Assembly: GCA_051362555.1 (NCBI GenBank) | Contig: CM120647.1 | Location: 12,500,651-12,564,650 of the forward strand | DNA length: 64,000 nucleotides | Reading direction: 5' to 3' | Source: Lingula anatina | Taxonomy: Eukaryota > Animalia > Brachiopoda | In this document: positions 1,423-59,345 of the stretch, in pieces | How positions within the stretch are numbered: position 1 is the first letter of the stretch | Layout of the letters: each line of letters starts with the position of its first letter | Translations under genes and position numbers: made by a program | The notes under the pieces: generated by a model | Seen by the model: only the letters and a program-made list of their open reading frames with translations | Told to the model about the DNA's origin: nothing | The model's database searches: none

Positions 1423-4400
1423 CAAGGGGGCTAATGCTGAATAAATATTTCTCAATTAGAGAGTGTACTCTTTACTAAACAAGTTTTTCCTATATAGTAC
1501 TCTTTAACAAAACACACCTTTTTTAACAAAAGACCAGGTAGATGAGCATCAAACAAATTCTCTCAAGGCATGGGAGCAGCATTTTGTTTGGGATTAAAAA
1601 CTTACATACCTTATTAGACATGAGCCATGGCAGCATCCTCTCCTGAAGGAATGCTTTCATGTTAGCTGCATTTTCTGGATTGCTACAGCCGTACATGAAC
1701 ACATTAGACTTCCGACTGTGTCCATGTAAATCACAGTATATAAGAATCTGAAAGCAGAGATTTGATTAGTAATACTAACAGTTCATTGGACTTCCGACTG
1801 TGTCCATGTATATCACAGTATATAGGAATCTGAAAGCAAAGAATTTAAGTGCTACAGTTCATATATTATTATAACAATCTATTTCATTCCTATATTCAGC
1901 TTGGGAACTTTAAACTTCCGTCCAATTTTGAAAGCTCCATTGAAGAGACAATAAATTCAACTAGTCTTTTAACTATTAAACTCCCAATTAATCAGGAATT
2001 ACCTCATTTTTGAGGGCGACCTCTGCCATCATGGCCTTGGTATGCCATACTGTGGGGAAGCTCTCGCGACGCGGGTGGCGGTAGTTACGATTCAGATCTC
2101 TAGCTCCTAGAGAGCACCTATAGTTTCCTACTATCACTCCGTCTATGTTGAGCATTGGCACAATTTTGAAAATAAATTTGTTTCGAAGTTGCTGAAAATA
2201 AAAAATTTAAATGTTATCATCAAACACAATATAATATTTTAATTAACATAAAAATCATTTTGATCTTAAACATACAACACTTTGAGAATGTATATAATTA
2301 AAATATATTAAAAAAAGAAAAGATTTGGCATCATTATGCCAAAATGTTCCAAAGGTGCTAAGTCAGTTCTATAATCACCAGAAAAGAATAAACCTCTTGT
2401 AATTTTAATTCTGCAATCCACACCACTTACTTTGGCAACAGAGTTTGAGCTGGTGATAAAATCTATCACCCCCTTCATCATCCAGCTGGCATTGGACTCC
2501 CCAGGGTGAACCCTGGCAGTGACGATCACTGCTTTCTTCTCAAAGTCATCTTTATCTGATACAAAAACAAATCTCATCATCATAAAAAAAAAAATCCTAT
2601 CTTATTTGTGGCTAATCAAACCAAAATATTTGAAACAAATCAATTTTTTCTTCCTTATTTTATCATTCTTCTTCTTTTTTTAAAATCAGTATTCACTTAT
2701 TTCTAAACATATTTTGGAATTTATGACAAAAAGAAGCCTGGCTTGAAAAATTTGGTGCCAGCATTTTAAGATGCAGTTAATGGCAACCACTTACCAAAGT
2801 TAGTGACAGTGAGTAAAAAGCAACTGTTCCCAGCCCTCGTCTCACACATGACTTCTCGTTTGACGACCCTTGACCTCTCAGGGTCAGATATGAGTAGGTC
2901 AAGGTCATCCTTCAGATCTGTGAAGGTATATGGATAACAGTGGGCAAGATAGCATGTGTCTTCTCCATGAGGAAATTCCTGAAATTAACGAAGAAAATTC
3001 TATTAATAATTATAAAAACTTAAAATTACGAAATAAATATATTATTTTATCAAATACCCCACTTCCTCTCTACCCTTATTACTTTTATAGGCTTAACTAC
3101 CTGCCCATGCAGTCATTGTTCCTCCTTAAACTTTAAGAAATTTCCAGGATTTGTTATGATACGGACATCATATTTAAAAATATAAAGATAAAAATTGTGA
3201 TTTTTAAAAACTGAATAGCCTTATGGTTTTAGACAAATTAGATTTTAAGGTAGATCAATGATAAATTTATCAAAAAATGTTTTGAAGCCAAATTAGAATA
3301 TATTTAGCATACGGCTATGATTTACTATAACAGAGCGAGCCGAGTTATTTGTACATTACTCACAATCTCAAACTCCAGTTCATAGTAAATGAGTTCTCTG
3401 TGCAGTAGTGGACACTGGACATGTTTATCATTTCTGTAGTAACTGGATGAAAAAAGAAAACATATTAAGTAAAAGCATATGTTGTCATGAAAACCTACAC
3501 AGCTTGCAATGCTTATCATCAGTACAAATAAACTGAAGTGCAGATTTAGTGTCAGATCAGTAAAACTTTGGTATTTTAAAGGCACGAACTAGTCATTCTT
3601 AGGATCAGTGAGACATGTTGATAGTCCATGCTAATCTGCGCGACCAGTGGGCTGAAGAAGTCTAAGTTGAAAGTTAAAGTATTCATAACAATTTTAAATA
3701 GGATAAAACGCTTTAAGTCAAATCTTCTCAAGTTTTTACCGTAGCTAAAAGCTCTGTTGTGTACCTGATATTGTGTCCTGTCCTGTACCAACCTATACCT
3801 TCTGATGCTGCCTTGGTCTCTGAGTACAACAATGGACGCATACCTAAAACATAATTCAAAATAATTGAATAAATTGAATAAATAATATATACATAATATA
3901 TTCATCTATTTTCTGTATGACAGGTATATTGTCTGCTGAATTATTAAATAAAATTTACTTCCAAACAACTCACCAGGATTATACATTATTATATACCTCT
4001 TCCACAGGTTGGTTATCCTCAACTTGAACCCCCAACCCCCCCCTGTACCCCTGCCAAACATCCATGTACACAAACACCACAACCATACAATATTTCCCCA
4101 ATGAAGTAGTGCCTCTTTCTCCCAAGTCACATTATACAGTATACCTTATATAGTAATACACATTACCTCCCCCCCCCCCCCCCCCCCCCCCCCACTTACC
4201 ATGATTATATAAACTGTCTCTCTTCAACAGGTTGGCTATCCTCAGTTTATACACTACTCCTGGCACCATACTCTTCACCCTGAAGTAGTACCACTGGGTG
4301 TGCCGCTTGGTGTACAGATCTGTCTTCAGCACCAATTCATATTCAAACTGGCCACTGAAATATCAAGTTGGTATTTGACTATCATACTAACCATTTAAGT

Positions 4401-4801
4401 AATAAAAAAACACACACAAAAAAAGGATGCACTTCCACATAATTTATGTACTAAGCTACATGTATGCTTAAAAAATTTCCTTACCAATAACCACTTTACA
4501 AAGCATATTATAAAATAAGTATTAAAGAACAATAAGGAAACATCACAGTTCACAGCAGAAAACTGGTACATGAGGAATATACAACAGTCTCATGACTGTC
4601 ACATGACTTACACTCTCCTGGCCTGGCGTAGGTTACCACACTCAAATCGAGACTCAAATGTGAGACTAGGACAACACCCCTCTGGCACGCGGGGCTGTGC
4701 ATAATCACGTGCACTCTTCTCGGAGTCAAACACGATCTGTATCCCCCTCCAGTTCCCTGTGTACGGAGTTTGCTGAGTGTCTACGGATTTGTTGGCTGGG
4801 A
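384..4801 (-). CDS. AGBL2: Cytosolic carboxypeptidase 2/3-like (Nna1/AGBL family, peptidase M14D, tubulin deglutamylase); 10 core exons; 3' end lies beyond the left window edge
   Basis: Exons 4612-4801, 4200-4354, 3765-3843, 3364-3442, 2795-2978, 2431-2555, 2003-2191, 1610-1747, 1157-1302 and 384-482 join in frame through GT-AG introns. Motifs: [28 protein letters not shown] (Zn HxxE), [24 protein letters not shown] (catalytic Glu). AGBL2 versus AGBL3 orthology cannot be resolved by eye. Confidence 0.93.
639..936. mobile_element. Foldback MITE, family A (PIF/Harbinger-like ends)
   Basis: About 130 bp near-perfect inverted arms GACCGCATTCACATCGAG...CTCGATGTGAATGCGGTC, flanked by TCT on both sides. 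Confidence 0.8.
1157..1302 (-). CDS. AGBL2: CCP exon with catalytic Glu ([12 protein letters not shown]...[14 protein letters not shown])
   Basis: Acceptor ttgccag and donor gtgagt; CCP C-terminal catalytic motif. Confidence 0.93.
1368..1418. repeat. (TA)n microsatellite; others near 4909, 41184, 45050 and 46785
   Basis: Read directly from the sequence. Confidence 0.95.
1610..1747 (-). CDS. AGBL2: CCP exon ([21 protein letters not shown]...PWLMSNK)
   Basis: Acceptor ctttcag and donor AAG|gtatgt; third Zn ligand in DLHGHS. Confidence 0.93.
2003..2191 (-). CDS. AGBL2: CCP exon ([37 protein letters not shown]...)
   Basis: Acceptor ttttcag and donor GAG|gtaatt; 189 bp, phase 0-0. Confidence 0.93.
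2431..2555 (-). CDS. AGBL2: CCP exon ([23 protein letters not shown])
   Basis: Acceptor gtatcag and donor gtaagt; HxxE zinc motif. Confidence 0.93.
2795..2978 (-). CDS. AGBL2: CCP exon ([21 protein letters not shown]...)
   Basis: Acceptor atttcag and donor G|gtaagt; YPYT motif. Confidence 0.92.
3364..3442 (-). CDS. AGBL2: CCP exon ([26 protein letters not shown])
   Basis: Acceptor tcatccag and donor gtgagt; phases match both neighbours. Confidence 0.88.
3765..3843 (-). CDS. AGBL2: CCP exon ([26 protein letters not shown])
   Basis: Acceptor gttttag and donor AG|gtacac; GMxPL.YS...GW.R.G pattern. Confidence 0.9.
4200..4354 (-). CDS. AGBL2: CCP exon ([26 protein letters not shown]...LYNH)
   Basis: Acceptor atttcag and donor G|gtaagt; WYYF motif. 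Confidence 0.92.
4612..4801 (-). CDS. AGBL2: CCP first common exon (..[19 protein letters not shown]), phase-1 acceptor
   Basis: Acceptor cttttccag and donor gtaagt; FESGNL-type motif. Confidence 0.92.
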
Positions 4802-4903
4802 CTGGAAAAGAATTCTTTTATTAATTTATTTTTTTTACACATTGGCACTTATATTTTTTATCATGTATTATAACTAATAATCTATATGTACTCAAATAAA
4901 CAT

Positions 4904-4980
<77 letters not shown>

Positions 4981-5489
4981 TAAATTGAATTATACAATTA
5001 AAATCAATGGGAAATGCAAAGAGAATGTTTCAGTTACAAATGAAGGGATTTTTTCTATTTTGATTGCTAAACTATTATAATCTGACAATAACATAAGTAT
5101 GAAATACATATTAGTAGACAAGAACATAAAATAACAGAAATATGGTTTTCATAAGCTAATTTAGAAAAAAACTGCAAGCTATCATCTGAAAAGAACATGA
5201 AATGTATATCAATAAAGCATGGAAATGGAAACTGAAAATAATGAAAAATCGATGCAGATTAATTGTAATAATACTGTAACACAAAGAATTATATTAATTT
5301 TTCATTTTGTTAATTAATAGTCACAGCAAAATAATACCAATAACCCTCCCGAAGCTACAACCAACGCATGTTACTTTCCCAAAACTTTAACAGCAAGTTT
5401 GCTATTTCTCTCTTAATGATACAGGTGCTCTCAATTCCAATCCCCAACCAACCCAGTATCCCCCACCGTTCACCCACAGTATCACTTAC

Positions 5490-5718
5490 CATCATATTCC
5501 AACTCAGTCCACAGCGGTTCCTCAAATGGCGGTGGTGTCCTAATGTGCCGCGGTGTCTCTAACACCACATTCTTATAGTTATGAGGCCAGTAAGGTCCGT
5601 AAGGCCAGTACTTAAAATCAGGAGGAGGGCGTTTAAATTTTGTCAGAAATCTCTCGAGCTCCTCAGAGTATTTGAAGAAGGTGCGGTACCATTCTCTTGT
5701 CTGGATACCCACCGCCAT
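5490..5718 (-). CDS. AGBL2: CCP N-terminal exon, proximal variant (MAVGIQ...YGPYWPHNYKNVVLETPRHIRTPPPFEEPLWTELEYD)
   Basis: ATG in gtcATGG context and phase-1 donor G|gtaagt that fits the 4801 acceptor. The frame stays open upstream to 5805, so it may instead be an internal exon from about 5801. Confidence 0.78.
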
Positions 5719-7294
5719 GACTGGATAACCGGATACTCTGTGGTACTTATCCGGTTTAGTACATGTTAGTAGAAGTGCATGGATATACTGGGTATATCCA
5801 TCTAGTCAGTGATCAGATCAAGTGCTATGTTATTCCTTCATTCATGGTGGGCAGTTTGCCTCGGAGAAGTCCTGCAAATTGCGCATAAAAATACAAAACA
5901 CATTTCAACGTACCATTATACAAAATGTAGTAACATGGCTATGTCGATGCATTTCTTTGCTGAGTTGTATGTTCAATGTTAATAGCAGGCTTCATACTAG
6001 GTTGTAGATATATCTTCATTTCTTCTCATCATATCCAGATTACTGTCAATCCATTAACAGACTTCAATCGACTCAGTTTTTACCTTTAAGTTATAATGAC
6101 AACATAAGTACCTGCACTTGTACAAAAGCCTTGTTGTGGCCAGGTCCCTTGTGTTTTTGAGAAGTGCCTCACATTACAAACAACAAAGCAAAGGGTATCC
6201 ACTGGAAAATAGGCTCACTAGATACCTTTGAAAACTGAGTCCTGATATTATGAAACAAGTCCTGTTTACATCAGCCCTAACTTAGCACAGATATCGACTA
6301 ACCTGAATCAGCACCGTCTGAAGTAAATAAGTGTCCATTTTATGTAAGAAGACAGGTCTCAGATAGTAAAATTCAACATCAATCAACCTTGTATCTTCTG
6401 GTGTATAATACCACAGGTTTGAATAGATATGTTGTATCAGATGTAATTTGGCCACAGGTGTGAACAGACCCAATGAATCTGTTTCATATGATCCGTAACT
6501 CATCTAAATACTACCAGCATGTCTCCCCCAATCTCATAACTCCTCCCCCAGTAATATCTTATGACTCAATTATTATTTGCAGCTTTTATTCACCAGCAAT
6601 CTGATTATCTAGTACCATTAGTACATTCCTACTGCCACTGGTACTTTGGCTATTTTCAAATACGGAGGTGTCAAGCCATGCTGTATTGAATTAAAATAGG
6701 ATTAAAGGGAAGTTAATAGAACCAGGTGTCTATCCATATTGATCCTGAGATGAACTGAAATGGGATCAAAAGAAAATTAAGTAATTTAATACAGAAAACT
6801 GATAAAAATTTCACTGACCTGATCAGAAAAACAGATTCCAGGAAAAATATTCCCCCAATAGGTAGATCTGAGAAATGCTACTCCACTTTACCTGATCTTC
6901 TGATGTTATCAATAAGATTATTTCTGGCCCAAGTCTAGAAGTTAGAGGGCATTCTTCAGGAGGGAAGAAACTAATCACATCTGGTGCAATTTGATCTAGA
7001 TTTGAGCACACAGACATTGTTATTTAGAAATGGTGTAGCAATTAAAAACACTCAAAATGTCTTTACAGTACAGATTTAATCTCAGTTTTGTTTCTATACA
7101 CTTAACCTGACTGGTCAATGTTTAACATTAAGTTTAAGATCAAATTATAATTATTGATTACTTCCTTCATATTTGTATCTTTCCTTTTTATTACAAGAAT
7201 ACCATGATAATGATTATCATAAATTAAATCTGATTATTTAAATGATTTACTTTATAGTTAGGACATATGTAATCTATAATGCTCACATTTTCCC

Positions 7295-8053
7295 TTAATA
7301 AGGAAAACCCTTTGGCATATTTGTAGCAGAATCTAAGTTTTTATCATATAGCTTTTCATTTAGCAGATAGCGCTTTGATGGCATTTCATCTTCCTTTTTC
7401 CTTTCAGTTCTTCTTGAAGCAGAAGATGATGGAGCAGACTTCAGAAAGTCACCACCCTTTTCCCTTTCATTTTTCCTTGAAACAGAAATACTTGTATTAT
7501 CCTCTACAGATCCTGAGGAACCTACTGCCTGCGTTAATGCTAAATGATCTTGTGCAGGGGCAGTTCTCGTCAAATGTTCAGACTCGTTCCCAGATAAATC
7601 ATCCTGCGATGATGGCTCTGCATTTTGGGAAATATTAGAGTCATCGTGATGTTTTCTCCGTCGCAAGGACGCAGATGTCACATACAGGTGTGTCACATGC
7701 AAACGGCATATTTCAGTGTTATTGATTTTCTGCATGTAAGGAACAAGGATACTCCTTGTCCTGTCAGAACTACTGTGACAGGCGCCATCTTTAGTTCTCA
7801 TTTCACTTCTGCTTGTCATGGCAACATCCCTGTCTCTCCTGGCAACATCCCTATCTGTCATGGCAACATCCCTATCTGTTACACTGTTTTTCTCCATGCT
7901 ATATTTCTCTTTTCCCACTGCCCCCTCAACTCCAGTCTTTTTCTTTGTTGTCACTTTCAAATCCTCAGCCTGTTTTTTCTTCCTCCCAATTCTACAAGTT
8001 GGATCAGTCTTTTCATCCATTGTACCAATTATTAACAATGATACCACATACAT
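7295..8053 (-). CDS. Orphan 252-aa low-complexity, charged ORF inside the CCP 5' region (likely start 8020)
   Basis: Long open frame in AT-rich intronic DNA, with a 7-aa repeat (DRDVAxx). No recognisable domain, and the stop precedes the nearest donor. Confidence 0.4.
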   Translation of the reverse strand: MYVVSLLIIGTMDEKTDPTCRIGRKKKQAEDLKVTTKKKTGVEGAVGKEKYSMEKNSVTDRDVAMTDRDVARRDRDVAMTSRSEMRTKDGACHSSSDRTRSILVPYMQKINNTEICRLHVTHLYVTSASLRRRKHHDDSNISQNAEPSSQDDLSGNESEHLTRTAPAQDHLALTQAVGSSGSVEDNTSISVSRKNEREKGGDFLKSAPSSSASRRTERKKEDEMPSKRYLLNEKLYDKNLDSATNMPKGFPY

Positions 8054-8899
8054 TAAATTATAAACAATACAGTCTGTTAACCAAGATGGAGCAATTCACT
8101 AGAAGTTATATAAGTAGGTGCTCATTACAATTTTATACAATGAAGCAATGGAGAGATTTCACTCCAACTTTAGATTTGGTATATAGTGACTGGAAGATTT
8201 CACTACAGCTTTTAATTCAGCATGCAGCCAATATTCCTATTTTTCTCAGCTTATGCAAAGCACATCAAGTCACTAGATACTACATGGATTTCTAATCAAA
8301 TTATCAAGTTTCATGATAATCTTACAACCAGCAAAAAAAGTCTTCACAAATGGTAAATGAAATGGAATAAGAGCTGCAGCAGTCTAGAATCACGAATCAA
8401 TGCAATGCTGTTCAAAACAGAAAAGTCAAAGGAAGAACTCCAGTTATATGGTCAATTGTAAAACCAAACTTGGATCAATTGTTACAGATTACATAGTGGT
8501 TTGATTTGCAAAATACAAAGAACAAACATATCCCCTTTCGGTTCAGGCTTGTAACTTGTCAGCATCAATCTTTTTGAAAATTGCGATCAAATCAGTTCTG
8601 GTGACAACTTGATTTTGGTGACATTTGTCATCAGTCACAGTGACAACATAATCAACAATGTTGGTGGGAAACCATAAGCAGAAAATGTGCTTTTGGATTT
8701 TTGAATAGGTGATGACATTGGTCTTAACTGCTTAATCAAAAAAGAGAAATGCGTTAATCTAATGACACATGAACCTAAAAGTACTGGTATTATCCACTAA
8801 GTGACTTTCAAATATTTTTCTAAAATATTCTGTTTCAATTCTTCAATCAAAGGTAAAAAAAAAAAATGCATGCCATGACATATGCATCAACATGTACAA

Positions 8900-10250
8900 T
8901 CAACACCCAGACAACTTTCCTCTAAACATCAACATATTTCCAATAAAATTTCCAGAGATTAGCTCCAGGTAAAATATATGATTTGAGCGTCAACACAGGT
9001 GTAATAGCCTCAGTCCACATATGCTGTCTGTTATCTTAGCAGCACCCAGTGTCAGATATGCCAAAACACATGGAAAGTTTGTCGTTGAGAGTGGTGTCCC
9101 AGAGACAGTCTGACACTTACGTGTCCTCAGGTGGACTGTGATAAAGTTGTCAACTTTGGCACCTGGTGACAGCCAGCAGGTAAGACGTGCATGTCACACC
9201 CAATGAGAAAGTTTAATTATGATGTTACAGGGTGGGTGGTGGCGTTGACGACGATGAGTGGATGGTGGAATAAGGCAGTCAATGGCTACTGTCAGCTGTA
9301 CTTTTAGTGCAGGTGTGTGATAGTCAGTGAAAAACTGGCTTTACATCTGGACTAAGATGACAATTAAGATGATTCACTGATATTATTTATGATGATGAAC
9401 TGTGAATTGACAGCTGTAGGCACTTTCCAATCACTGTCACACTGGTTATTGATGACAAATTCTGATAGCTCTCTCTTGAAAAAAAAAAAAAAACCCACAA
9501 ACACAGACGTGCTGTAGCCAACTCCCTGCAACACTGATAGTTGCAGACAAATTCCTGTGACTCTGACTTCTGAATAATTTCTTCAGTCCAGCAACTAAGG
9601 ACTTCCAAATCTTCTTTCACAGCACAAACATGTATCTTTACAGCTGTAAATGCCCAAGTTAAGGAAATAACAGGTACATTAACTATTAGACTATTGGATG
9701 AATTTTATCTTAAGCCTTTAAGCTGCTGAACAATGATGAATAAGATTCACAAGCATTGACTCTAATACGCTGTCAGGTAAAGGTATTCCGTTCCTGTTAA
9801 TACTGTATCCAGGATGCATCATATCCTGCAAATATCTTTTATGAACTAGACTGAAACTCCCACTGCCATTCTGGTAACTGTAACAACTACTTGTGATCTG
9901 CTGCCAGTTCAAGTCCAATCAATAGGACACTTTCAATCAAATTAAGGTCAAAGTTTTATAGGGAAAAAAATGCCATTTGTTGCATCAGGTCGGGCACTCT
10001 ACACATCAGTGTGGTATTGTTAGTGTTGTCAAAGTCACGTCAGCACGTATTAACAGTTTAATGGTAAAAGACAGGAAGACACATCACTCAAATGCTGTTT
10101 CTTGGATAAGCAGCACAAAAACAACAATTTTTCCACCTTCCTTTCTAGTAAATAACTCTCAGTCACGTAAGTTTTGGGGCACCTGCCCTCAGCACCTGAT
10201 AAATCCCCAACATTCACAGATTAGGTCTGAATGGTGAGTTTTTCATTAAA
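8900..10250 (-). mobile_element. Highly decayed L2-like LINE remnant
   Basis: Minus-strand relics resembling GKIVVFVLL..AF (RT) and ITPVL; boundaries are approximate. Confidence 0.35.
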
Positions 10251-11079
10251 ATTGACAGTTAATATCCCCAAGAATCCTTTACACGTATAAAGCCACTTCT
10301 TTCACATTTCTCTTCAGAAACTCAGCCTGCAAACCAGGTAACGTTTCTCCTCAGAAGTCCCCAGGCATGCCTAATCCAGTGGACCCACAGATTAACAAAT
10401 CATAACAGCTTTCGCGTCTCGCTGTCAGTTATCTCAACTCGTGAAATGCGGAAAGCTAAAAACATTATCTTGGAGTATTTAAATCTATGAGGTAGCTTGG
10501 GATAATATGTCATTTTTCTCTCCCTGGCCCCTGCTAACAATTACGTTCCATGTGTACCCAGCAAAACGGCAGAGATTTATTCACCCGGTGGATTATTTGA
10601 GAGGAGTTTCATCACTCTGCACCTATTACACTAACCCTTTACAAACCATCCCTTTCCAAAAATCAACTGGCATTATAGCCTATATACATGAAACCAAGCA
10701 TGATGATGGGCCAAGAAGGGTTAATGTCAATATTCTCTTTATAAGTCAACACATTGCTAATGTATTCAAGCACATGTTTCCATCAATAAGTTTTAATTTG
10801 AAATTCTTGGTCTTTAAGTGCTCTCTGAATTGGCTATTAGGTGTACTTCATCTGGGATGCAGTGCCATTCATCTGGCTAACTAATTTGGAACTGTTAGTA
10901 CAAATCAATAGTTCGAGTTGTGAATTGTGTGGTCCTATTTTGAACTGTATTTAGTTTTCAAAAAAGGACTTTTGCTGTCAACATTCCAAAACAGATTTGT
11001 CACACCAAACAAAGGGCTTTTTTCCCCTTAATTTTTGAAATAATCAAACTTTTACCCATAAGAATTTTGTAACAACCAG

Positions 11080-11340
11080 GGCCCAGTTTTATAAAGGACG
11101 TTTAGCACTAACCAGTGGATAAGCCTAACCAGTGGATAAATTCCCCTAACACCCATTAACTAAAAGATGGTTAAATTGTGTTTTATATACAGTCTTTTAA
11201 CAGAAAACAGCCAATTAGTTAACTGGCCAGTGTTTTACTGGATTAAATAATTATTTAAAGGTCAGTTTACTAACAGACTATTTAGGTCTGGTTAGAGTTA
11301 AACACTGGTTAGTGCTAAACGTCCTTTATAAAACTGGGCC
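11080..11340. mobile_element. MITE with perfect TIRs and CAG target duplication (PIF/Harbinger-like)
   Basis: GGCCCAGTTTTATAAAGGACGTTTAGCACTAACCAGTG and its exact reverse complement; CAG on both flanks. Confidence 0.88.
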
Positions 11341-11704
11341 CAGGTTTTATACATCTCTGTGCTTAAATATTTTGTACCTTAAATATTTCAATTCATGATA
11401 AAAAAATAAATACCTAATGCTAATAGACAAACTAAAATTTTCATGCCACTTTTTTATAATTTAAAGAAATCGTATTAGATCAATTTTTCAGGATACATAA
11501 CACATTGCATCTGCACAGTCAGTGATCATTCAGTGACAGCAGATTCATGAATCAAACAAACCCCTTGACAACCACAAAAAGAGATAACTTATATTCTTAG
11601 TACTTAACCTTCTACCAACAGATCAAAATCAGTCTGAAGCAAAATCTATCCCTACTGGTAACGCCTGCCATCAAATTTCAACTCCCCAATAAACAAAACC
11701 CTAC

Positions 11705-11762
11705 CTTGGCCAGGGGTACCCGTCTTGTTTGTTTTTATCCTTAAGCGTCCTTTCTGGCTCAT
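11705..11762 (-). CDS. Candidate short alternative first exon (MSQKGRLRIKTNKTGTPGQ)
   Basis: Phase-1 donor AAG|gtaggg; sits in a small CpG-retaining patch. Short enough to arise by chance. Confidence 0.25.
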
Positions 11763-14700
11763 AAAATTCGCAATCACGTACGGTAAGACTTCAGTGTTAT
11801 GAATACATAGAGCAAATTGCTGCGGGATATCAACAGTGTGCTGTATTCATTATATTTGATCTCTGTGGCTTGGTAAATAAATCCCCCTAATAGACCAACA
11901 GTTTAAAATACATTGAGGATCTTGGTGGGAAACCAGATAAGAATTTCATGTGAGTCTGTGCTGAGTTTACCTTTTTGACCATGTGTCAAAAACATATCTT
12001 CCCGATAGACCTACAGTTTAAAACACATTGAGAGATATCAGTGAGAAATCAGATAGGAATTTCATAGAAGTTTAAGGCTGTATCTGATTTTTCTTTTCTT
12101 TTTCCCCCTTTTTTTGTGTTACAAAATATGAAATAACTTCAGAATCTGCTTTTATGGATGTTTTTTTTTTTTTTTTTTTTTGAGCAGCAAGTCTAAGGGA
12201 TTGATGGATATTTACATTTACTTTTTGTTTGTTTGCTTGTTCTTCAACCTTTTAGATACATCTATATGGTTCAAACTAAAAATTATTACCATGTCCCCAA
12301 AATGTCTCAGGCGTTCTTCTGCCCAAATGCCCATTCAGAATCAAAGTAAAAAAGAAATTACATGCATTTCTACTTGCTTTTAATTGAAATTCAATTTCCA
12401 TAAACCTAAGGAAAATGTTAAAAGGCAACTCTGGAACAGGTGTGCGTCTTAATTTTCAACCTACTTATAATAACAGGTCTCATTCAATATACATTCAATG
12501 CACATTACATCATTCCATCTTTAAAAAAAATCATGAAAAATAGTATCAAAGTCTTGGAAAAGTATAGTTTTTCTTTGCAAATGTATAGACTAACTTATCA
12601 TACAAATCCCCTCCCTATATCTAGTGTGTTTCCTCTTAAAATGTTTTCTCAAAAAGCCTTGTCTGTTATTTCAAGAAAAAAAAAAACTCTTCGTCAACTG
12701 ATGTAAGATCATCCAAGCGAAGGATCATATTCACCTTAAAACTTATATTTATTCTACAGAAAAATACATGAAATCATTTTGAGTCCAGAAACACTCCAAC
12801 AACTATTTTTACTTAAGTGTTTAATATTAACCTCATACACCCTAGCTAGAGAACAAAAAACTAAACCGTCACGGCTTCATTCTCCCATATCATCTTTTCT
12901 TTACCAAGTCCCCCATTGAGTTGACAAGAGCACACTTTTGTCATTCAAGCATGGCCTCTTGAGAATGAAAAGGTGCCAGTGCTTGGGGAGACACTATGGT
13001 GTGGATATATAACAATATCAGTGTCTTAGTTTTATTGTAGGGAACCGTGACATATCAAATTGTACCATCATAGTTTGAGAAGCTAGATGGAAAATAGGGA
13101 AAACAAATATTGTACTTAAGTCTACAAGAAGCAAAAACAGTTTTGCGTGAAGTTTAAATTTGTAATGAGGGCTCAATGTCTTCTCTAAACCCTTTAATCT
13201 TTTTTTAAAGTCCTGGCAGAGGTTTATTATGAAGATCTATCTAAGTATATATCTCTAACTTGTACATCTTATAAATACCTACATAAATCAACTTTCTGAT
13301 CACAAAATGAACAATAGTGAATTTATTGTAAGTTAATCAAGTAACTGGATATTTTTTTTTTTTAGTTTTTTAGTCCAGTTGACAAAAGTTTAAAATCTCT
13401 CATCAAAATGCTAGCAGTACATTATCAAACCTACCTTAATCTTCAAACAGTGGCTACAAGTTTTAACTGCTGATAACTCTCCACTACGAAGAACACAAAC
13501 ACAAACGGTCAATAGCTCAGTAACCTATTCAGTTGTCCTTTGAAAATTTCAGCCTACACTTGATCATAAAGACAGCAACCTCTAACTGAATACATATTCT
13601 TTATTCTATAAACACAACAGACATTTTTGTATCTCCAATACATATTCCCTAAAACAACCACCCCCAGGGCCTTGCCTGAAGACCTAGCCTGTCCATAAAA
13701 CTGGGATCCGACAAAATTTGTTTTTTCATGATGTTAAGATAATATTTAACCGTCACTAGTATTTAATTAATGGGTCTTAGGGTCAAGATGTTTTAATGCT
13801 TTGAATTAAGACTTGTAACCTATACCTAACAGGTAAATTATACTGATATGTCATGATACTGGTACATTAACTAATAAGTTATGCCAAATTACAGATATCA
13901 AAGCTAGTCTAGTATATATCTTAAGTTTATTTTGTAAATATACGGTCAGCTACTAACTCCCAAGTACTGGCCACTGTTTCTGCTTTTGGGCAGTTGTTTT
14001 GTAGACACTAGTGTCCTAAAAATGTTGAGTACCTGATCTTAATGCCTAGTTTCTACCTAGTTTTAATTTAAATTTATTACCTACCAGTCTAGTAATTTAC
14101 CACTGTTTATCTAACCTACCAAACAGTCTTGAGTATCAACTTTATGTAAATGTTTTCTGAACCCATGAAAAATTTACTCAAATAACATCATTCCACTTCC
14201 TTTACACTAAAAAACCAACTGTTTTTATCAACAGTCACTCAAATTGCAGTTTTAATGGCATGTACTTCAAGTGATTAACCTACATCCTGTTACATAACAC
14301 AATATCCTGACCAAATGTAATTACTATAGTACCTGAATGTCTGAGGTGACCTACCTGAAAAATGTGTACCATTTTTTCAAACAGTTTCCTATCCCATGGG
14401 CAAGGTCTTTCTTAAACTTAACGACAACACGTTCGCTTCTTTCCCAGTCTCACCTGTTCATAGTTTACCTTCAATTAATTAATGGTATTTGTCCTATATT
14501 ACAATAATTACTGGAGCTTTGAAGTATTGACAAGTGCTTGGTGATATACGGCAGTGCAGTGAAAACGCTCAGACTTTAGCTTAAACAGGGCATAAAGGAG
14601 TCGTATTGACTTAAGACACTGATCAATTATTTAAATAAGACTACTCCGTTGGCTTGTTGCTGCCTAAGAGAGAAGCCCAGTATATTGGGCCGAAGTTAGC

Positions 14701-17700
14701 CTACTAGAAATATTAAGTCTGTTTTAATTGTTTGCTAGACAAGGACCTTTCATTTGCCAATTTACCATTTTGAAAGTACAAAATAAGGACATGTCCTAGC
14801 TTTTAGATTCAATTGTAGCCATATGCTTATGCTATTTCAGTCAACCTAAATCTGAAACTTTTTTTTGTTAACTTATCATAATTCCTAGAGCAAAAACTAT
14901 GGGATCATGTTACCTTATAGATCTCAGCCACAAAAAGACCTTCTTTCAAGGAAGTAGAAGAAAATTCTTAATTTTTTTTTCCATCAATCTCCAATTTTCT
15001 AAACACACCTAGGAAGTAGACGAAAATTCTAAAATTTGTTTGTTTTTTTTTTTTCATCAATCTCCAATTTCCTAAACACACCTACCTAAAATGGAATCAA
15101 GTAAGATATACTTATAGAATGTTTCACTTACAGCTGGGTAAGAATACCATTGCATTCAAGCTAATGGACATGTAAAATCTGAAACTTTTTTTAAAAACAA
15201 ACATACAATTTTTTAAGCACAAAAATCATTTGCCTGTTTCAATTATTTTAGCAAAAATGAATGTCACTGAAAATGTTCATACTGACTGATAAATTTCAGA
15301 TTATTTCTCAGGATTTTCTGTACTTTTGAAAATAAGGTCTTACTAGCAGTATAAAACTGGCCACCTTTGAGCTGCTGATAAATGATTATCAGCAGTTCAA
15401 AAAGTAAATTTGGAGAAAAATCAATGTATAATACATCTTAATTCTTAAAATCTTTTTTCCCTGGTAGCACAAATTTAAAGTGTATCTTAAATCAATAAAT
15501 CAACCTTATCTGTTCATTTGAAATTCAAATGCAATTTTTTTCAAAAGAAAATAACGTACAGCTGATGAGTCAACACAACCAATGCAGACAAATGCAAATT
15601 TTTCAAAAGAAAAATCACGCACATCGAACACACAAATGCAGTCACAGTTTACAAGTGGATATAACACATATTTGAACGGAGATTTCCTTGACAAATGAAA
15701 AAAAAAATTAAAAAAGGATACATTAGCTTTGTCTTCAAAACTAGGTTCCTGCCCACGTGGCTCAAGCAGCTCTGTTGCTTCAGAATGCTATTAGTGCTAA
15801 ATAAGTCTCTGAATAAGTAAGATATTTCTTTAGTCTATGCCAAGTCCCAACATAAAGAGAATCCATCCACTCCAAGCAAAATACTGCAAAACCTGATATG
15901 GAGTCTCAAAGTTGAGCTTCGGTGCTTGAACTTGAGTGCGTCTCACATGCTCACACGACACAACACGGCACGATGCATGAAGTAGTCAATTAAAGCAAAT
16001 CCACAGACTACGACCTTTTGCAACATGTAGTAGTCGAATCTATTTTCCTTGTTTGAAAACCAAGCACAGAACTTTATTTTTTCTTTTCGCAGTTTGATAC
16101 AGGTGACTTCTGGCCTTTCTTTCTTTCTGTGTCTGCTCCTTTCGTTTCTTCACTTCACGACTGGGCCATCAGAGCCTGATATGGCTTGTTATCCATAGAC
16201 AACCCTCTGTTAATGGGGCTATCAACAAACAGAAAACACAGCAGCAGATTGTGATATTATTTCACAATTGGTGTGGTGCATTACGCAAGCAAATCTGGTA
16301 ACCTCTTCCAATGAGCTTTTTCTTCTTTTCAAAAATATCACCACTTGGAAAATGAAGCCTAAGGTTTTGTCATATAAACGTATTTAGTTTACTGTACAAT
16401 ACGACAGTTCTCATGGTTTTAATCTCTTAATCAATAAAACATGGGGATATTAAGGCAATATATGTCCTCATGCCTCAAATGTTTTTCTATTTCATTCTAA
16501 GCGCCCCTGCCACATTTTCAACATAATCTGTCAACAATGTATCTCTGTGATAAGGATGGCAGATTATGTTATTGCACCAAGGGGATCAATGTTTTTTTCT
16601 TTCTTTCCTTCTGCCTGGGGAAAAGTGTGCTACATCAATAATGCAGGAACATCAATTGAAACTTCTGGTTCACTCCACGTGTCGAGAAGACAATCAATTC
16701 TACCCAGACTCCAGGTACAAATTTTCAATGCCGCAACTATGGGGAAATGTTTTTAAAGACCTTAGGATCAATAAAACGAGTCTCTTTCACAGTTTAAGGT
16801 AAATGCCTGAACATTTCAAAACACTTCTCTTTGTAGACATTTGTATGCTTTGTTACAATTAATCAGTTTAAAAATGGACTAATTTTAGATAAAACTATGT
16901 AAATTTCTTACCCAGAGCCTAAAAACATATCAGTCAAAATTAAGATTTCTGACAGAAACAAACAACCACACCCACTTACACTTCATTTCTTATCCAGTGC
17001 CTAAAAATACATCTGCTTCAGTCAGAATTTAGATATTTGACTGAACTGAAAACCATTCCTAATCACTATTTTCCACAGGCCTTCTTGTTTAAAAATAAGC
17101 TTAAAAACAAAGTTCTGTTGAAAAACAGAAGCCGTAAAAGAATATCATCCTTTGTATGGTGGCTAAGCCAAAGGCAAACACTGGAACTGGACACGGAGGA
17201 GAGAGGGAAGGATCATGACGCCTTAATGTTGACCAAGCCCTTAAGTTTTGACAGCATCTTAGGCCCATATTCAAAAAGCTTACCCTAAAATAAAATCATT
17301 TAGTTTATGTGTAAAAAGTATATATTTTTATTATCGTTTCTAAAGAGACTGTCGTTTTTTCTTCCCATGAAATACATATTTCACCTTATTAAGTTTTATT
17401 CCTTATTTTGAAAAAATTAACATGGTCTAGTAAACTATGGCTTTTTGAATATATATCTTGATTAATTTAATTGATCCATATATCTAATTGCATCATAATC
17501 AAGTCAAGGCCAAAAGTCCAACAATAACAGCAATAACAACAAAAACAATCCAACTTTAGCAAATTATCAAATATATGGCCAAATAATCAATTATTATGCA
17601 GCAATCCTAGTGGCTAGACAAAAGTCCCTAAGATCATAATTAAGTCAACTTTACTTGACCCATGTAAAGCAGTGGTAAAAAGTTTAAAAAGAAATAGCTC

Positions 17701-19289
17701 ACTTCTCTGACCATAATCTTTGACCACTACCTTCAGGGGGCAAAGAGTCACGTATAAATTCCGTAACCAATTGACTTATTTCTCACTTTGATAACCAAAA
17801 TGAATTATATATTGGTTTTAGCTGGAGGCAACCAATTAATATTGTATTATGTCATGACTTTTGACTTTTGCGCGAGTGAAGTTTAGACGGGGTGGTTTGA
17901 CATATATAATAAGGATTTATAAATTGAATGCAATCAGAACTTAAAATTCTACAACAAAATTATATTTGGCTATTTTTTAAAAAAATAGGAAAAGATGGTG
18001 AAAAAAGGTGAATGCAAATAGGGTGAACCCATATGTGCCAATTCAATATACATTCTATTTGTCTTCCCATTTGGACTACAAAACGCCCATGCTACCACCT
18101 AGACTGTTTCACAAGTGGACTTCTCACTAAAGTCCATTCGTAACTAAATGAGAAACACACCCAGCATCCTCACATAAGTGATCCACTACTGGCTTGTATT
18201 GGGGCAGAGTGCACTTACAGTGAAAACCAACTCTTAGGGTCTATTGTGAAACAAGAGAGAGTCTTGCGTCTAAACCTTCTTAAAGACACAAAAAGCAGGT
18301 CAATATCCTTCTGTAGCTAAATATTTAGACGTGGTCTTTCCATTATGCCCCCTGCCCCACCTTTGCTTGTATCAACACCATTAAGTCGAAACTATGAGAG
18401 CAGAGAATTGAAATATTGATGGATTCTTTAGTGAAAGTTCTATTCACACCTGGTCTGACTTAAACAGGAAGCGGTCAAACTGACATCTCCAAAATTTTTT
18501 TTTTAAATCTACTTATCAATAATAATATTAAGATGTAATCCTATATATTATTATTATTATATTGTCTCCTGTTGGTTTGTTAGACTATATATATCAGTTT
18601 GAGTTTGTCCAGTTGTGAATGCTACTGTAGTTGTACATTGACCAGGTTGACAAAGGGTGTTAAAGCGTGATGTTGATACACACGGCAGCTAATGTGGTAA
18701 CAATTTGGATTTATCAATAGTAGAAACACACCTGTAACGATATGGCACTTGTCAATTAAATAAAAAGGCTTATAATATTCTCTCTGGAATCAATAATTAT
18801 CACTTGATCAAAGAGAGTATAACAAAGAAGAATTAGTTCTTTGTTACATCTTGACATAACTGTGAAAGTTGTATTTTCAAGTCTAAGAAGAGAAGCATAA
18901 ATATCAAAATGTCCTCGATTTTTTCCCTGGATGAAATTATCTTCAGCAAAAAATAAGTGGCTAGGATGTAAAATTCCTATAAAAAATACAGTCACCTTAG
19001 TTCAAAAGCAAAAAGAAATATAGACATTATATTTTCAAAAGGCTGGTTTATTGGTTTATTCATTTTAGTGAAGGGGGGGGGGGAGTAGCTGCAGACAGCT
19101 GCAGAAGACAAGACTTGTTATTGAAAGTCATAAAGATTGCAACAGAAGACTACATTTGTCTCTACAATCACACCATCTGTTGAACAGCTTGAAGCCTGCT
19201 CCACCCTGATTGCAGTAGATGTGCCCTTCAAACAGTACAACACAATGAGAGAAGCTGAAAGAGTAAATAATGTGCCTCTGTGTGATTAC

Positions 19290-19407
19290 CTTCTTTGGGC
19301 TCTGGGCTTTGATTACTGCTTCTCTTCAATTTACTGCATTTCATTAACTGGAAACAACTGTATCTGTGTAAGGGCCATTCCACTTTTTTCCTCCTCTGGC
19401 GCATCAT
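19290..19407 (-). CDS. Candidate alternative first coding exon (MMRQRRKKVEWPLHRYSCFQLMKCSKLKRSSNQSPEPKE)
   Basis: In-frame TGA immediately before the ATG; 39 codons plus 1 nt; donor AG|gtaatc in phase 1; WP...PEP echoes the other N-terminal exons. Confidence 0.4.
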
Positions 19408-20007
19408 TCACTTTCCTTCATAAAATTTTTGCTACTTGTTATCAACAAAAACCCAAAGTGTTCAAATGAAATTGCTTTTACCTTTTGAAATATATATTCC
19501 TCAAAATAGAAAAGGAAAAAATACACAGCAGAAAAAACGCATAACAACTTTCATATTCTAAATTCTTTGCCTGGAATAAAAAATAAAATCAAAATAAAAA
19601 ATAAAAAACGGGATTTAAAAGAAGAAAAATCTACAGTGAAATGACTCCTTATAAGTATCTCAGTTTAGAACATAAAAGACAAAAAAAAAAAAAACAGCAT
19701 CGGCCTGTCTTCTTCCATCAGGGTACTTTTGCTGTGAGCCTGAAAAGTCAACACATACACATACATAAGCCTATTCACAACAGATGATCCTTGGACAGCG
19801 CTTGTGGAGGTGGCGATATAGGTCTTACTGACATGCAGGGTCTACCATATTTGATCCTCGGACAGCACTTGTGGTGGAAGGGAGATGCGTCTTGCTTTCA
19901 TGTGCCACATTTGTTCTGCAGATCAGTAGATCTGAAGATCATCAGTTCTGAATGGGCTCTGTTAAACCAAATCAGGCTAGGGGATCAAAACAGATCATTC
20001 TACTCAC

Positions 20008-20685
20008 CGCTAATCTCCGTCATCAAATATTCAGGGGTTGCTGGCACTGCAAGAATATGTTTTGGCGTTGGGAAAAGCGGTCCATAATCTGGCGGCCAAA
20101 ACGGTCCGTGCTCATCCCTCACCACGCCATATTTGTCTGCAAACTTCCCATTGTGTAACAATGTCAACTTAGAACCATCTGGAAAACGACCATTTCTCAG
20201 AGCTTCGAGGTACCCTTCCCGCGTGCAAGTAGAAAATATTTTAGGCGGTTTGGGAGGTTGGCTCATAATGCCAAAATTTTCCAGTCTCGCCCAGCGCCCT
20301 AAAGACGGCGCCTGATTGGGCATTCTGTCCAATCCCAGTACACCTGGAAAATCGTCTTGATTTGACCTAGATAATTCACCTTCTAGTCTTGGCGATGTCT
20401 TTTTCTGAAACCCACTCCCCTCTGATGCAGACCTGCGCAAGTTTTTTAAACGCCTTTTCTGCATTTCTCTCCAATGTCTGGAGTTTACATAATCTCTTTC
20501 TTTATCTGTCAGGTCCATCATAATTTGAGCATTTAGCTGAGAGATGTGATCAACATCTTCTTTATCGGCTTTGTTGCGATTGCGCTGGATTCTTTCCAGT
20601 GGTGGAGTGTCCAGAGCTTCACGAACTCTGCTGTTGATTTCTGCATCCAGTTGCTCCTTTAATTTCTTCTTGTTCACTTCTGGAT
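20008..20685 (-). CDS. AGBL2: CCP N-terminal exon, distal variant (DPEVNKKKLKEQLD...EHGPFWPPDYGPLFPTPKHILAVPATPEYLMTEIS)
   Basis: 678 bp open frame, phase 1-1 (tctttcag|AT ... G|gtgagt). The C-terminal GPxWP..Y..TPxHI..P..E motif matches the 5490-5718 exon. Confidence 0.75.
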
Positions 20686-20946
20686 CTGAAAGATTTTTCA
20701 ACCATTATTTAATTAACTAAATTCTACATATTTGAATCATGTATTTTTTTTTCTATTTGGTAATGTAACTCACATCTTTTAGTTTTCTAAAGGTCATGTT
20801 ATATTGTGGACAAAGACCAATTTAACTTCCTGAAGGTTCAAGGCCTTCTCACTTAAAAGGACAAATATTCACGTTGGCTATAAGAACATCCCAGGGGTAT
20901 AGATCAGTGAGTGCTTATATCTGTGCCATTCAAAATCTGTTTATTT

Positions 20947-20977
<31 letters not shown>

Positions 20978-21849
20978 TTTTTTGCAGCAGCAGCAGCAGA
21001 TGAATAACAGAAGAGAGATTCTAACCAGGTTTCTTTCACTTTGGACTCGAATACTATTCAGAACTTTTTTTTCTATTAAAAATAGTTTCTGCAAGCTCAA
21101 CACTATTAGGGAATTTTAGTATTACCAGTTTCTTTTTTTTTTTTTCATTTTTATTCGCCATCTTTTCCTGCACTTATATTTCAACATACTTCAAGGTATA
21201 AAAGTTTTTTTCATATTTCACAGAGGAATTGATAGGAGAACAGTCCATTATCATTTCGGTGTGACAATTGTGACAGAGTCTCAACTAACACAATCCTGGT
21301 TGACAATTTATCCAAGGGCAGATTCACAAACCAACATCAATCAAAACCTGCAGTTATAGGTTAGACAATTTAAGGCACAATATTTTCAGGCAGTATTTTA
21401 CATTAAACAGGAACAAAGTTGTTCTTTGTTATTTCAGTTAAACAAGATCACAATCCACTGAATCAGTGGCATCACAAAATTATATTTTAGTCACAAGTCA
21501 GAGAAAGGTGAAAGGTCACTGATCAAAAGATGTAAAAGAATTCTCATAGCAGAACTTATTTCCTATTCATTAGTATTTTTATGGCTGGAATTTTTAGTCT
21601 GAGACAATTCATAAGGTTTCACAGTATAACAGCAGCTGAAAAAAGTATTTTAGCATTTAAGTTCAATTAAATCAAAAGCAAAAGATTAATGCTCATGGAA
21701 CAATAACAGTACATTAATTATCAAATTAAGGAGACACATGTATTATTAATATAATTCCAATGACAATCCAATCAGTTATGAAAAACAGGCTTACATTTTA
21801 ATACAAAGTGAAATTGAAAAATGTTAATAATAAAATCACTGCACTCTAC

Positions 21850-22021
21850 CTCCGAACCCACCCTCCATTTCGATCTGTTTCTTCTTCTCTTCTGAGAATC
21901 GATTGATCTCATCTTTAAGGGAAGAGTAATTTGAGCGTGTGTACCCATCATAAGAGGAGTAGGTTGGGCGGGGGCTGTGACCCATCCCGCCCCCGCCATT
22001 TTTATCCAACATGGCCGACAT
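21850..22021 (-). CDS. AGBL2: Likely first coding exon for the distal variant (MSAMLDKNGGGGMGHSPRPT...EMEGGFG)
   Basis: ATG in actgccATG context; phase-1 donor G|gtagag fits the acceptor at 20685; locally CpG-rich; X-box-like site just upstream. Confidence 0.6.
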
Positions 22022-22043
22022 GGCAGTGGCACCTCCCTACACA

Positions 22044-22057
22044 GTTGCTATGTCAAC
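22044..22057. promoter_or_regulatory. RFX X-box-like site GTTGCTATGTCAAC
   Basis: One mismatch to the GTHNYYATRRNAAC X-box consensus; 22 bp upstream of the 22021 ATG. Confidence 0.5.
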
Positions 22058-23264
22058 AACTGCGATTTAATAAACCTGTAATTTTCATCAGTATTATGAT
22101 GTAAAAATTTTGCTAGCTGTAAATGTTAAATATTGTTTGTTTTAATAAAATCATGTGCAGCAGGGTTACATCAATTAATTATTACAATATCATAATCTAT
22201 GTCCAGGTACTCAATGCATCAATTCACACATGCTGAGTATACATACCAGGAGCAGGTATCACTTTACCTAATAATTTGTTCAAACCTAAGGCCAAACATG
22301 GAGAAACTGCTGGTCTGAATGGTCATGACTGCCTGAAAAGCCAGACGACCAACAAGATTTGTGACAATGCAGGTCCTGCAAACCTTCAATACGCTCCAAA
22401 AGTTTGCCCCATATCTACCTAAGGATAAGACCTAATTTGGAAACCTGCAGCAAAAATGGCCTCAGTTAGCAAAATGTCACAAAATTAGGATTAACCAGAT
22501 TAATTCTACGACCTGTAGACCTGCTTGATTGCACAGTAGGTAAATTTTTTTATGAAGATTAAAAAGCATGCCACAAAGGAGATTTTTCTGAGACCTTTCT
22601 TTATGGTTGCGTTCTCAACCAGATTAACTTCGGGCAAATAAATCTTGTTTACATCCCCCAATCAAATGGATCTTAATTGCTTTACGTAAGAATACTTTTC
22701 AATTCTGTCTCATATTTTCAATCACATTATAGATTTTCAGTCATGAAAGCTGTGTCTGAACAGGCAGAAAATGAACAACGAAACTGGAAAGAAATCAAAC
22801 ATCAAACTTCAATCAATCTCAGTTGTTCTCTCAACTTCTATACCACTAGTAAGAACACAGTGGTTATTATACAACAAGACCAATCATGCGTGCATTATGT
22901 TAAACCAGGATGTTCAATTAACCGTGTGCATGTCAAAAGTCACAGTCAAAATTCAGTCAATCTCTCCAATGTGAGGCTTTTATGTTTTATAAAACAGTGC
23001 ATATGATGTTCTGTGCTACATGCATAAACAGTATCTCAAACAGCACAATACATACTTAATGATGTCTAAAGTCTAGATCAAAACACAGTCCATCTTACCA
23101 ACTTAACATTATAAGGCTTGTGAATTAGACTAGTAGTGTGTTGTTTTTAGCCTATACCAAATGTCTTAAACAGCAGCACAGTACTAGTAACCAAGCCCCT
23201 GTCTGCCAACTTGACAAAAAATACAATCTCTCCAGCCAAACATAAGGAGCCTCAGGCCTATAAA

Positions 23265-23581
23265 GGGACCATTCAGAATGAGAAGAGCTGAGTGCTAGCT
23301 GGTTCACAGCCTAAATATGGCGGACTTGCATGAAAGGAAGACCGCTTAATTTTGTAATGGTCTCTCCGCCTCTTTCAAGCCTCCACACACGTCATTCCGG
23401 CAGGGGCACAGTAATTAAAACTCGTCTCAATACGACCAGTCGAGGGACGATGCATTTGGAGGCATGTGAGAGGGCCAGAGACCATAGTACAGGATTAAGT
23501 GGTCTTCCTTTCATGTATAGGTCACCCATATTTAGGTCGTGGACCAGCTAGCATTCGGCTCTTCTCAATCTGAATGGCCCC
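23265..23581. mobile_element. Foldback MITE, family A
   Basis: Ends GGGACCATTCAGA...TCTGAATGGCCCC; shares ctaaatatggcggac..catgaaaggaa with 639-936. Confidence 0.78.
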
Positions 23582-40349: not shown

Positions 40350-40630
40350 TGCATACAGTGCGTGTTAGATCTTTTTGTTGCGAGGAAACGGAAAAGAAGA
40401 AGGAGTTAAAAAGGAACCTTCGAAGAAATACTAATTATAGTATATTTAAGAAATACTATTTATAGTATAACATTCGATTGATAAAGATGCAATCGGCAAT
40501 GTCAAGGCAAGGTTGATCAAATAAGAAAAACACATGCTGGAACATATTAAGATAAACAAGCTGAGCCAGTCATTGGTGTATTCTCGCGACTTTGATTAAT
40601 TGCAGAGATGACAGAAGAGCTGAGAACAAT

Positions 40631-54796
<14,166 letters not shown>

Positions 54797-59068: not shown

Positions 59069-59345
59069 GTTTGTTTATTTATTTATTTTTCTTAAATCTT
59101 TCTTATTTGGTCACCTGAAACTAGATCAAAACAGTTAGGAGCTAGCTGTTCCAATACTATGTCTGACTCGTGGACTAGAGAGCAAATAAAAAGTCCAGGA
59201 CTGTCGGGCAGGTGGTAGGGGTATAATATTTAAAATGGAGGAGTTGAACCTGATACTGTAGCCTTGCCCAGAAACATAATAAAAAAGTCATTGATCAATC
59301 CATTTGCATTTTTGGAAGCCCTCTGAATAACAGGTTATGTAGATG

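Follow-up and report, generated by a model that had tools for sequence, protein, structure and literature searches.

The window analysed here is the whole 64,000-nucleotide stretch of Lingula anatina DNA at positions 12,500,651 to 12,564,650 of contig CM120647.1 (assembly GCA_051362555.1, forward strand), and the gene of interest is a cytosolic carboxypeptidase (CCP) gene that lies on the minus strand and runs off the window end. Upstream of its constant core are two N-terminal cassettes, A and B, which probably serve as alternative starts of the protein. The first common exon (4612-4801) has a phase-1 acceptor and is placed by its phase and splice sites, by mapping of the Lingula anatina protein P0058 (named cytosolic carboxypeptidase 2 by NCBI) and by read ends at 4801. 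The remaining core exons were obtained from the P0058 mapping and lie at 4200-4354, 3765-3843, 3364-3442, 2795-2978, 2431-2555, 2003-2191, 1610-1747, 1157-1302 and about 384-482, with the low end of the last set by eye from the chain translation; the domains PF18027 (29.0 bits in P0058) and PF00246 (44.9 bits) both pass the curated Pfam cut-off. The conceptual chain of A and core comprises 537 residues inside the window, is open and shows 3 differences from P0058 (99% identity), and a query with exon A alone returned P0058 only (2 candidates). The chain of the 21850 exon, B and the ten core exons comprises 744 residues with no stop.

The motifs HPGE (residue 322), DLHGH (416) and FTMEATF (492) of P0058 correspond to the HxxE and H zinc ligands and the catalytic glutamate of the family. 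FECGNL, WYYF (161) and YPYT (259) are also present, and correspond to the M14D motifs named FESGNL, WYYY/F and YPYTY/F in PMC4230590. In its domains, motifs and fold, the gene product has the features of an intact M14D-type enzyme, and its family membership makes tubulin deglutamylase activity likely. Two repeats touch the core exons. A 62-nt tandem copy (1702-1763 and 1784-1845, 92% identical) duplicates a core-exon acceptor with its first bases, and the copied acceptor, 82 nt upstream of the real one at 1747, is a possible decoy or alternative 3' splice site; a 90-nt tandem repeat (44-419, 4.1 copies) starts within the last core exon of the window and copies the donor region into the intron.

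Cassette B (20008-20685), identified by homology, reads and a Lineus homologue model, encodes 225 residues that end in GPFWP..TPKH..PE; its exon is 678 nt long and 1-1 symmetric. Cassette A (5490-5871), identified from the P0058 N-terminus, encodes 76 residues from an ATG at 5718 and ends in YWPYGPYWP..TPRH..EEPL, with a phase-1 donor at 5490 and, at 5871, a candidate acceptor for an untranslated upstream exon. P0058, an NCBI model, passes from the A N-terminus directly into the 4801 exon. The B form has a first coding exon at 21850-22075 (ATG 22021, 57 codons, phase-1 donor) and, farther upstream, an exon of the 5' untranslated region (UTR) at 24155-24261, of which the 24261 acceptor is read from the sequence; this acceptor and read depth up to 24979 point to further UTR exons upstream. 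All coordinates, phases and splice dinucleotides in an initial annotation of this DNA are present in the sequence on the minus strand, as are the paralogous peptides that it had noticed before 5490 and 20008, which are identical at 14 of 34 positions (E 7e-05 in a pairwise test). The homology of A and B is confined to these last ~34 residues. Bivalve and nemertean proteins match cassette B in their N-termini at 37-39% identity, with B fused to the core in all 15 matches; the 21850 exon peptide weakly matches sea-urchin B N-termini (BLASTP, E 0.055), and an Atlas search with B gave no usable match. Joining 24155-24261 to 22075 creates an 18-codon out-of-frame upstream open reading frame (ORF); it stops ahead of the main B-form ATG and could lower translation of that form.

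RNA reads and isoforms of relatives

Four of nine raw-read RNA runs (X1, X4, X5 and X7; 6-25% of each) were mapped on 4980-24979, a stretch that excludes 4801, and the joining of B to 4801 is deduced from loose read ends. Depth is low, and statements below on reads refer to the joints and loose ends listed for these four runs; a further 5 joints and 54 loose ends lie outside this listing. The joint 21850->20685 is observed in all four runs (1, 9, 1 and 3 reads), as the initial annotation had expected for the symmetric exon at 20008-20685. The joint 24155->22075, which is absent from its predictions, is observed in three of the four (2, 6, 0 and 3 reads) and indicates that the ATG exon spans 22075 to 21850 and is internal; the ATG and the joint to 20685 proposed for 21850-22021 thus stand, but its place as first exon does not. 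In X5, four reads run past 20008 into a 30-base extension that aligns to 4772-4801 with a single mismatch (29 of 30) and to no other place in the window, which indicates that B joins the core directly and skips A. The B bin has a depth of 4.1 in X4 and 3.5 in X5, compared with 0 on the A coding bin in both, and in X1 the values are 0.05 for B and 0.35 for A (some two reads; X1 also has reads scattered over introns). No transcription start sites were called at this low read depth, and no joints or loose ends at 5490, 11705, 15132 or 19290 are among those listed. A miniature inverted-repeat element at 11074-11346 (59-nt arms, 92% complementary) pulls in reads from copies elsewhere, and a read-attracting repeat of similar kind lies near 23260-23375.

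The joining of cassette A to 4801 rests on the NCBI gene model rather than on reads and is very probable. The initial annotation had named, as an outcome contrary to it, a single leader spliced to 4801; B reaches 4801 in the reads and A reaches it in the Lingula model.

The isoform listings of relatives' loci, which are automated gene models with many isoforms per locus in the counts, include short forms that carry an A-type leader on the same core as the B forms. In 12 of 14 A-versus-B comparisons the sequences switch 47-49 residues before FESRFE, and the Lingula intron lies at 48. The switching pairs come from Lineus, three scallops, oyster, Potamilus, Ruditapes, Mya, Haliotis, two sea urchins and amphioxus, and the 400-residue core is identical in 10 of these 12; the two exceptions among the 14 compare different assemblies (Biomphalaria) or different species (Mytilus). 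The core motif is present in 225 of 236 proteins, and 222 of the 225 have one GPxWP, two have none and one has two. The motif-less proteins are short Haliotis leaders at the same junction, and the protein with two motifs is a gene model of the annelid Dimorphilus (P0081), with B before A. Amphioxus has a third cassette, a second one of B type, and the Lytechinus pictus annotation makes B a short gene of its own, ending just past the donor (P0164, P0165, P0167 and P0173) and labelled 'myosin-M heavy chain-like'. Entries for the extra amphioxus cassette, the motif-less Haliotis leaders and L. pictus B are found under P0190, P0204, P0212 and P0164. Additionally, an optional insert of 14-17 residues lies between B and core in Mya, Ruditapes and Dreissena (P0138, P0143 and P0147, compared with P0223) and provides a precedent for an extra exon at this junction.

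The A/B isoforms are thus already present in RefSeq, uncommented. Single models form an annotation trap, in that they keep A only (Lingula), split off B (L. pictus) or fuse both (Dimorphilus). No description of this isoform pair, or of the clade described below, was found in the literature searched, a coverage outside which most subscription journals lie; published CCP phylogenies by Rodriguez de la Vega and colleagues, including one of 2007 cited in PMC4230590, may already include the clade.

Clade of the enzyme and age of the cassettes

A search of 1.84 billion representatives was used to build a core tree from the best 150 of 9253 matches. The tree has 130 rows (20 representatives without a parseable core and two multi-copy models were left out), and the core trees hold no CCP1/4, CCP5 or CCP6 rows. 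It separates a GPxWP clade from a side with canonical CCP2/3: the canonical side includes lizard CCP2, frog CCP3 and one crinoid gene, and the Lingula side includes another crinoid gene, Nematostella, acoel, shark and lamprey. The separate clade is supported at 99-100%, a 30-row likelihood tree agrees (99%), and forcing shark and lamprey with CCP2/3 is rejected by the approximately unbiased (AU) test at p 1e-53, for a group that was chosen after inspection of the 130-row tree and in which 3 of 7 rows are unnamed. The separate clade and the AU rejection rule out orthology of the gene to CCP2 or CCP3. On these sequence comparisons the gene is a sister paralogue of CCP2/3; of the CCP2/3-type enzyme in the initial annotation, the shared WP..H..P..EP segment holds and orthology does not.

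The WP..HI..P.EP segment before the N-terminal domain aligns across both clades, and canonical CCP2/3 representatives have one WP..HI segment each (isoforms were compared at three loci only). Search rank and the common WP segment suggest a nearer tie to CCP2/3 than to other CCPs. Since mammals have six CCPs (PMC13279043), the Lingula clade seems to lie outside the mammalian enzymes, with mammalian genomes not themselves searched. Two further proteins, P0237 (2168 residues) and P0238 (1509 residues), contain four matched stretches each, apparently tandem CCP domains that are either real or fused models.

A cassette tree of 50 rows (23 A and 27 B, one of each type per species) was computed from an alignment of 8 residues before the motif and 30 from the motif onward, with rows typed by their upstream sequence before the tree was made. 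The A and B rows form clades at 100/98 support, and sea-urchin and amphioxus rows occur in both. The pattern [FYH]W[PV][YH] precedes the motif in 23 of 23 A rows and 0 of 27 B rows, and a one-residue insertion follows the motif in all 23 A rows. Among the proteins listed, where absence from annotation is not absence from the genome, Nematostella, acoel, rotifers, flatworms, shark and lamprey have B-type segments only, and in each the B profile outscores the A profile. Because these segments, from Nematostella to lamprey, are of B type and the WP segment of canonical CCP2/3 shares the B spacing, B is likely the ancestral form and A a derived copy made before the protostome-deuterostome split.

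Probable use of two N-termini on one core, and the alternatives

Taken together, one gene probably makes two proteins by splicing B or A onto 4801, likely from separate promoters. This is the duplication of the WP segment into two alternative N-termini on a constant core that the initial annotation had proposed, and it is borne out by reads for B, by the Lingula model for A and by the isoforms of relatives. The reads show a distal transcript with the joints 24155->22075, 21850->20685 and 20008->4801, in which A is skipped. A second transcript would be translated from 5718 and joined from 5490 to 4801, which the annotation makes highly likely in this species. Cassette A would in all likelihood have arisen from the B tail by exon duplication before the protostome-deuterostome split, B being the older, and it would probably have its own proximal promoter. 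The duplicated WP..H..P..EPL tail would, with somewhat lower confidence, contribute to the working of the enzyme by packing on the core, with one copy present in each transcript. The leaders may be alike at their ends and otherwise unrelated because each transcript needs one copy of the tail; if the tail is required for the enzyme, a new internal promoter would yield a working isoform only if it carries such a copy. The chances are about even that the unrelated upstream parts, helices and a module in B and a short helix in A, set partners, places or activity by cell type.

Structural models bear on the proposed role of the tail. The H..P..EPL stretch has no regular secondary structure in the AlphaFold models of either P0058 (A form) or the Lineus B form, and its block has a predicted local distance difference test (pLDDT) value of 89 and 91, respectively; a confident stretch without regular structure suggests packing on the core. 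The junction loop to the core is of low confidence (pLDDT 55 in A and 72 in B), the B model contains a module of ~70 residues (pLDDT 83-94) and long helices, and the A model contains one short helix. The top structural match of the Lineus homologue model is CCP5 (E 8.6e-31, template-modelling score 0.71 by target). A complex prediction of the window B tail (80 residues) with the Lingula core, made without alignments or folded controls, scored 0.26 (mark 0.34) and is weighed neither way. Of the mouse CCP2 and CCP3 constructs, the shortest with activity begin close to the TTQ motif and include the WP segment, and those truncated further begin ~10 residues before FESRFE (PMC4230590, section 7 and Table S1). 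The TTQ start maps ~120-130 residues before FESRFE, as mapped on other vertebrate-type sequences.

Several observations weigh against two alternative N-termini of a working enzyme, or against their single old origin. The joining of B to 4801 is seen in four reads of one of the four runs, the joint 5490->4801 is not among the reads listed, and the depth of the A coding bin is 0.35 in X1 and 0 in the other three runs. The isoforms of relatives are automated models, and B alone is listed in Tubulanus (5 of 5), Dreissena (12 of 12), Nematostella, shark, lamprey and acoel. In the A model the GPYWP block has a pLDDT of 50; the mouse deletions span 115-123 residues and thus extend beyond the motif alone. 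At residue 363 of P0058 (about 2140-2155 of the window, minus strand), NIDG replaces the usual NPDG, in the window and the NCBI model in common, and NPDG is present in 362 of the 368 proteins compared. A tree of the shared tail alone supports the A/B split at only 92/91, not starred, and the spiralian A profile scores deuterostome A leaders at 2.8, -3.6 and -6.6 upstream of the motif, which is no match; A may for these two reasons have arisen by separate duplications rather than once. Finally, A has a good upstream acceptor at 5871 and may hence be reached from a shared promoter.

This last point leads to an unlikely alternative, in which one promoter drives both forms and a shared untranslated exon is spliced to 22075 (B) or straight to 5871 (A). 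The acceptor at 5871 has a pyrimidine-rich tract and is followed by an in-frame stop, and the B transcript carries untranslated exons at its 5' end. In S. purpuratus one A-type protein has 3 transcript accessions, and in Haliotis one has at least 4, so that several 5' UTRs are implied. However, no 24155->5871 joint is among those listed at this low depth, although both sites lie inside the mapped stretch.

A wider array, additive to the A/B pair, in which 19290, 15132, 11705 or an open frame here called ORF X also act as leaders and at least four N-termini exist, is rather improbable. The two motif-less Haliotis leaders and the second B-like cassette of amphioxus are consistent with it. However, the three further ATG exons of the initial annotation, although present as patterns, do not differ from chance: ATG-to-phase-1-donor patterns of at least 12 codons number 8 between 5900 and 19990, the opposite strand has 6 and 100 Markov simulations gave 7.2±2.9; none of the three leaders has a BLASTP match at E≤1 among 392 relatives. 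The bins of all three have zero sense-direction depth in three of four runs; that of 19290-19407 has depth in X1 only, mostly from poly-A matches, that of 15132-15171 has depth 0 in three runs, and that of 11705-11762 has depth 0 in X4 and X5 and ≤0.15 in X1 and X7. An array of five leaders was rejected, the three extra ones being at chance frequency, unconserved and without listed junctions. Leaders without a tail would likely give an inactive enzyme, if the tail is a working part as proposed above.

ORF X (7295-8095, minus strand) is an open frame of 266 codons between B and A with an acceptor at 8073, a phase-1 donor at 7453 and AATAAA at 7192, and it is one of the eight patterns. It exceeds chance, since none of 300 simulated versions of the 14 kb interval reached its length, and it fits in frame, both of which favour a wider array. 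Its sequence is of low complexity, its depth is 0.16-0.68 in all four runs (in a bin that includes a short tandem repeat), no junction of it is among the reads listed, and an Atlas search gave no usable match. One possibility is that it serves as an optional 1-1 exon (7453-8073), another that B transcripts use it as an alternative last exon. Pfam identified no family on A, B, the 4801 exon, ORF X, the 21850 leader or the 19290 leader.

Serial use of B and A within one protein, or decay or mis-annotation of A in this species, is very improbable. The Dimorphilus model P0081 has B and then A, weak AG sites at 5801, 5735 and 5720 would join B to A in frame, and the missing A junction among the reads listed fits both serial use and decay. 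However, the X5 reads take B directly to 4801, and not into the 5490 exon as the initial annotation had considered; moreover, only one of the 225 proteins has two motifs, with an ERERER run in its linker that is read as intron read-through. Serial use is further discouraged because splicing B to the best A acceptor (5871) drives its frame into a stop after 15 codons. Against decay, the A frame is intact and ~55% identical to relatives across the first 150 residues. That the distal exons form an independent nested gene, also raised in the initial annotation, has the separate L. pictus gene in its favour, as well as the failure of a Lingula B-plus-core protein to turn up among proteins of 395-2000 residues, but it is extremely improbable given the reads that join 20008 to 4801 and the fusion of B to the core in all 15 matches and from Nematostella to shark; B-only transcripts may be a minor product.

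If the two-cassette reading is extended as far as it will go, the clade would be an overlooked seventh CCP type, found from sea anemone to shark and dependent on a plug-in tail, in which one bilaterian tail duplication gives a long, helix-anchored enzyme and a short one to different cell types (for example, ciliated epithelium and sperm) and B-only products, such as the L. pictus models or B spliced to ORF X in the window, are non-catalytic regulators; this extension is speculative and unlikely as a whole.

Elsewhere in the window, exons of a glycosyltransferase family 7 gene lie on the plus strand at 40565-54820 (PF13733 at 46891-47109 and 52602-52829), with a DDE transposase remnant inside the gene on the minus strand (45440-46378). 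Two similar tandem FkbM methyltransferase-type genes lie on the minus strand at 57822-59074 and 62736-63947, the first assigned by PF05050 and the second by likeness.

Comparison with known systems

The closest solved sequences and folds are CCP5 and bacterial M14D carboxypeptidases (8v3m-8v3s, 4b6z, 4a37 and 3l2n). Their identity is ≤26%, the printed alignments begin at query residue 120, past the cassette segment, and no solved CCP2/3-type structure is among the structure matches. Compared with vertebrate CCP2/CCP3 (AGBL2/AGBL3; PMC4230590), the window gene has the same PF18027 and PF00246 domains and catalytic motifs, and in both the WP..H..P..EP segment lies 80-90 residues before FESRFE. 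The differences are that the Lingula gene belongs to a separate clade, that a crinoid has both genes and that the shark and lamprey members group with Lingula.

The initial annotation likened the locus to clustered protocadherin or UGT1A genes. The likeness extends to a variable 5' coding exon on constant 3' exons; those clusters have 9-21 large homologous first exons (PMC8373072), whereas here there are two cassettes (three in amphioxus), which are homologous in the tail only, and B lies downstream of the first exon. A cluster of this type was rejected in view of the two supported cassettes, the homology over ~34 residues and the at least two exons upstream of B, which make B at least the third exon of its transcript.

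The A/B pair instead works like a tandem-duplicated 5' exon substitution and is one by its testable features, with A known here from the gene model and not verified by reads. Homologous tandem N-terminal coding exons are present in one gene, and one or the other cassette is used, not both, as indicated by the B reads, the A model and the single motif in 222 of 225 proteins. N-terminal substitutions derived from tandem exon duplication are described for KCNAB1, GCNT2 and tropomyosin, and the human catalogue holds 39-40 N-terminal substitution events (PMC8373072, PMC9741552); 21 of 236 human events date to Bilateria (PMC8373072), and either-or exon pairs, where measured, are often tissue-specific (PMC9741552). 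The window gene resembles these in having two homologous 5' coding exons used singly on a constant body and in being old. It differs in that only the last ~34 residues are homologous and in that the B form takes two coding exons plus one or more UTR exons. Because the gene lies outside the six mammalian CCPs, it cannot be in the human catalogue, and 'AGBL' has 0 matches in the main texts of PMC8373072 and PMC9741552.

Either-or exon pairs of bilaterian age are rare, and this one sits on a likely eraser of the tubulin code, in a paralogue clade that mammals seem to be without and that databases label CCP2-like. The pair offers a natural experiment on the role of the conserved segment before the CCP N-terminal domain and on the aiming of a deglutamylase at particular microtubules, with sea urchin, oyster and amphioxus as testable hosts. 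In comparison with the known systems, the mechanism is familiar, but its age, the conservation at a single junction and its host, an unstudied paralogue of the tubulin-code erasers, make the pair a real lead open to testing.

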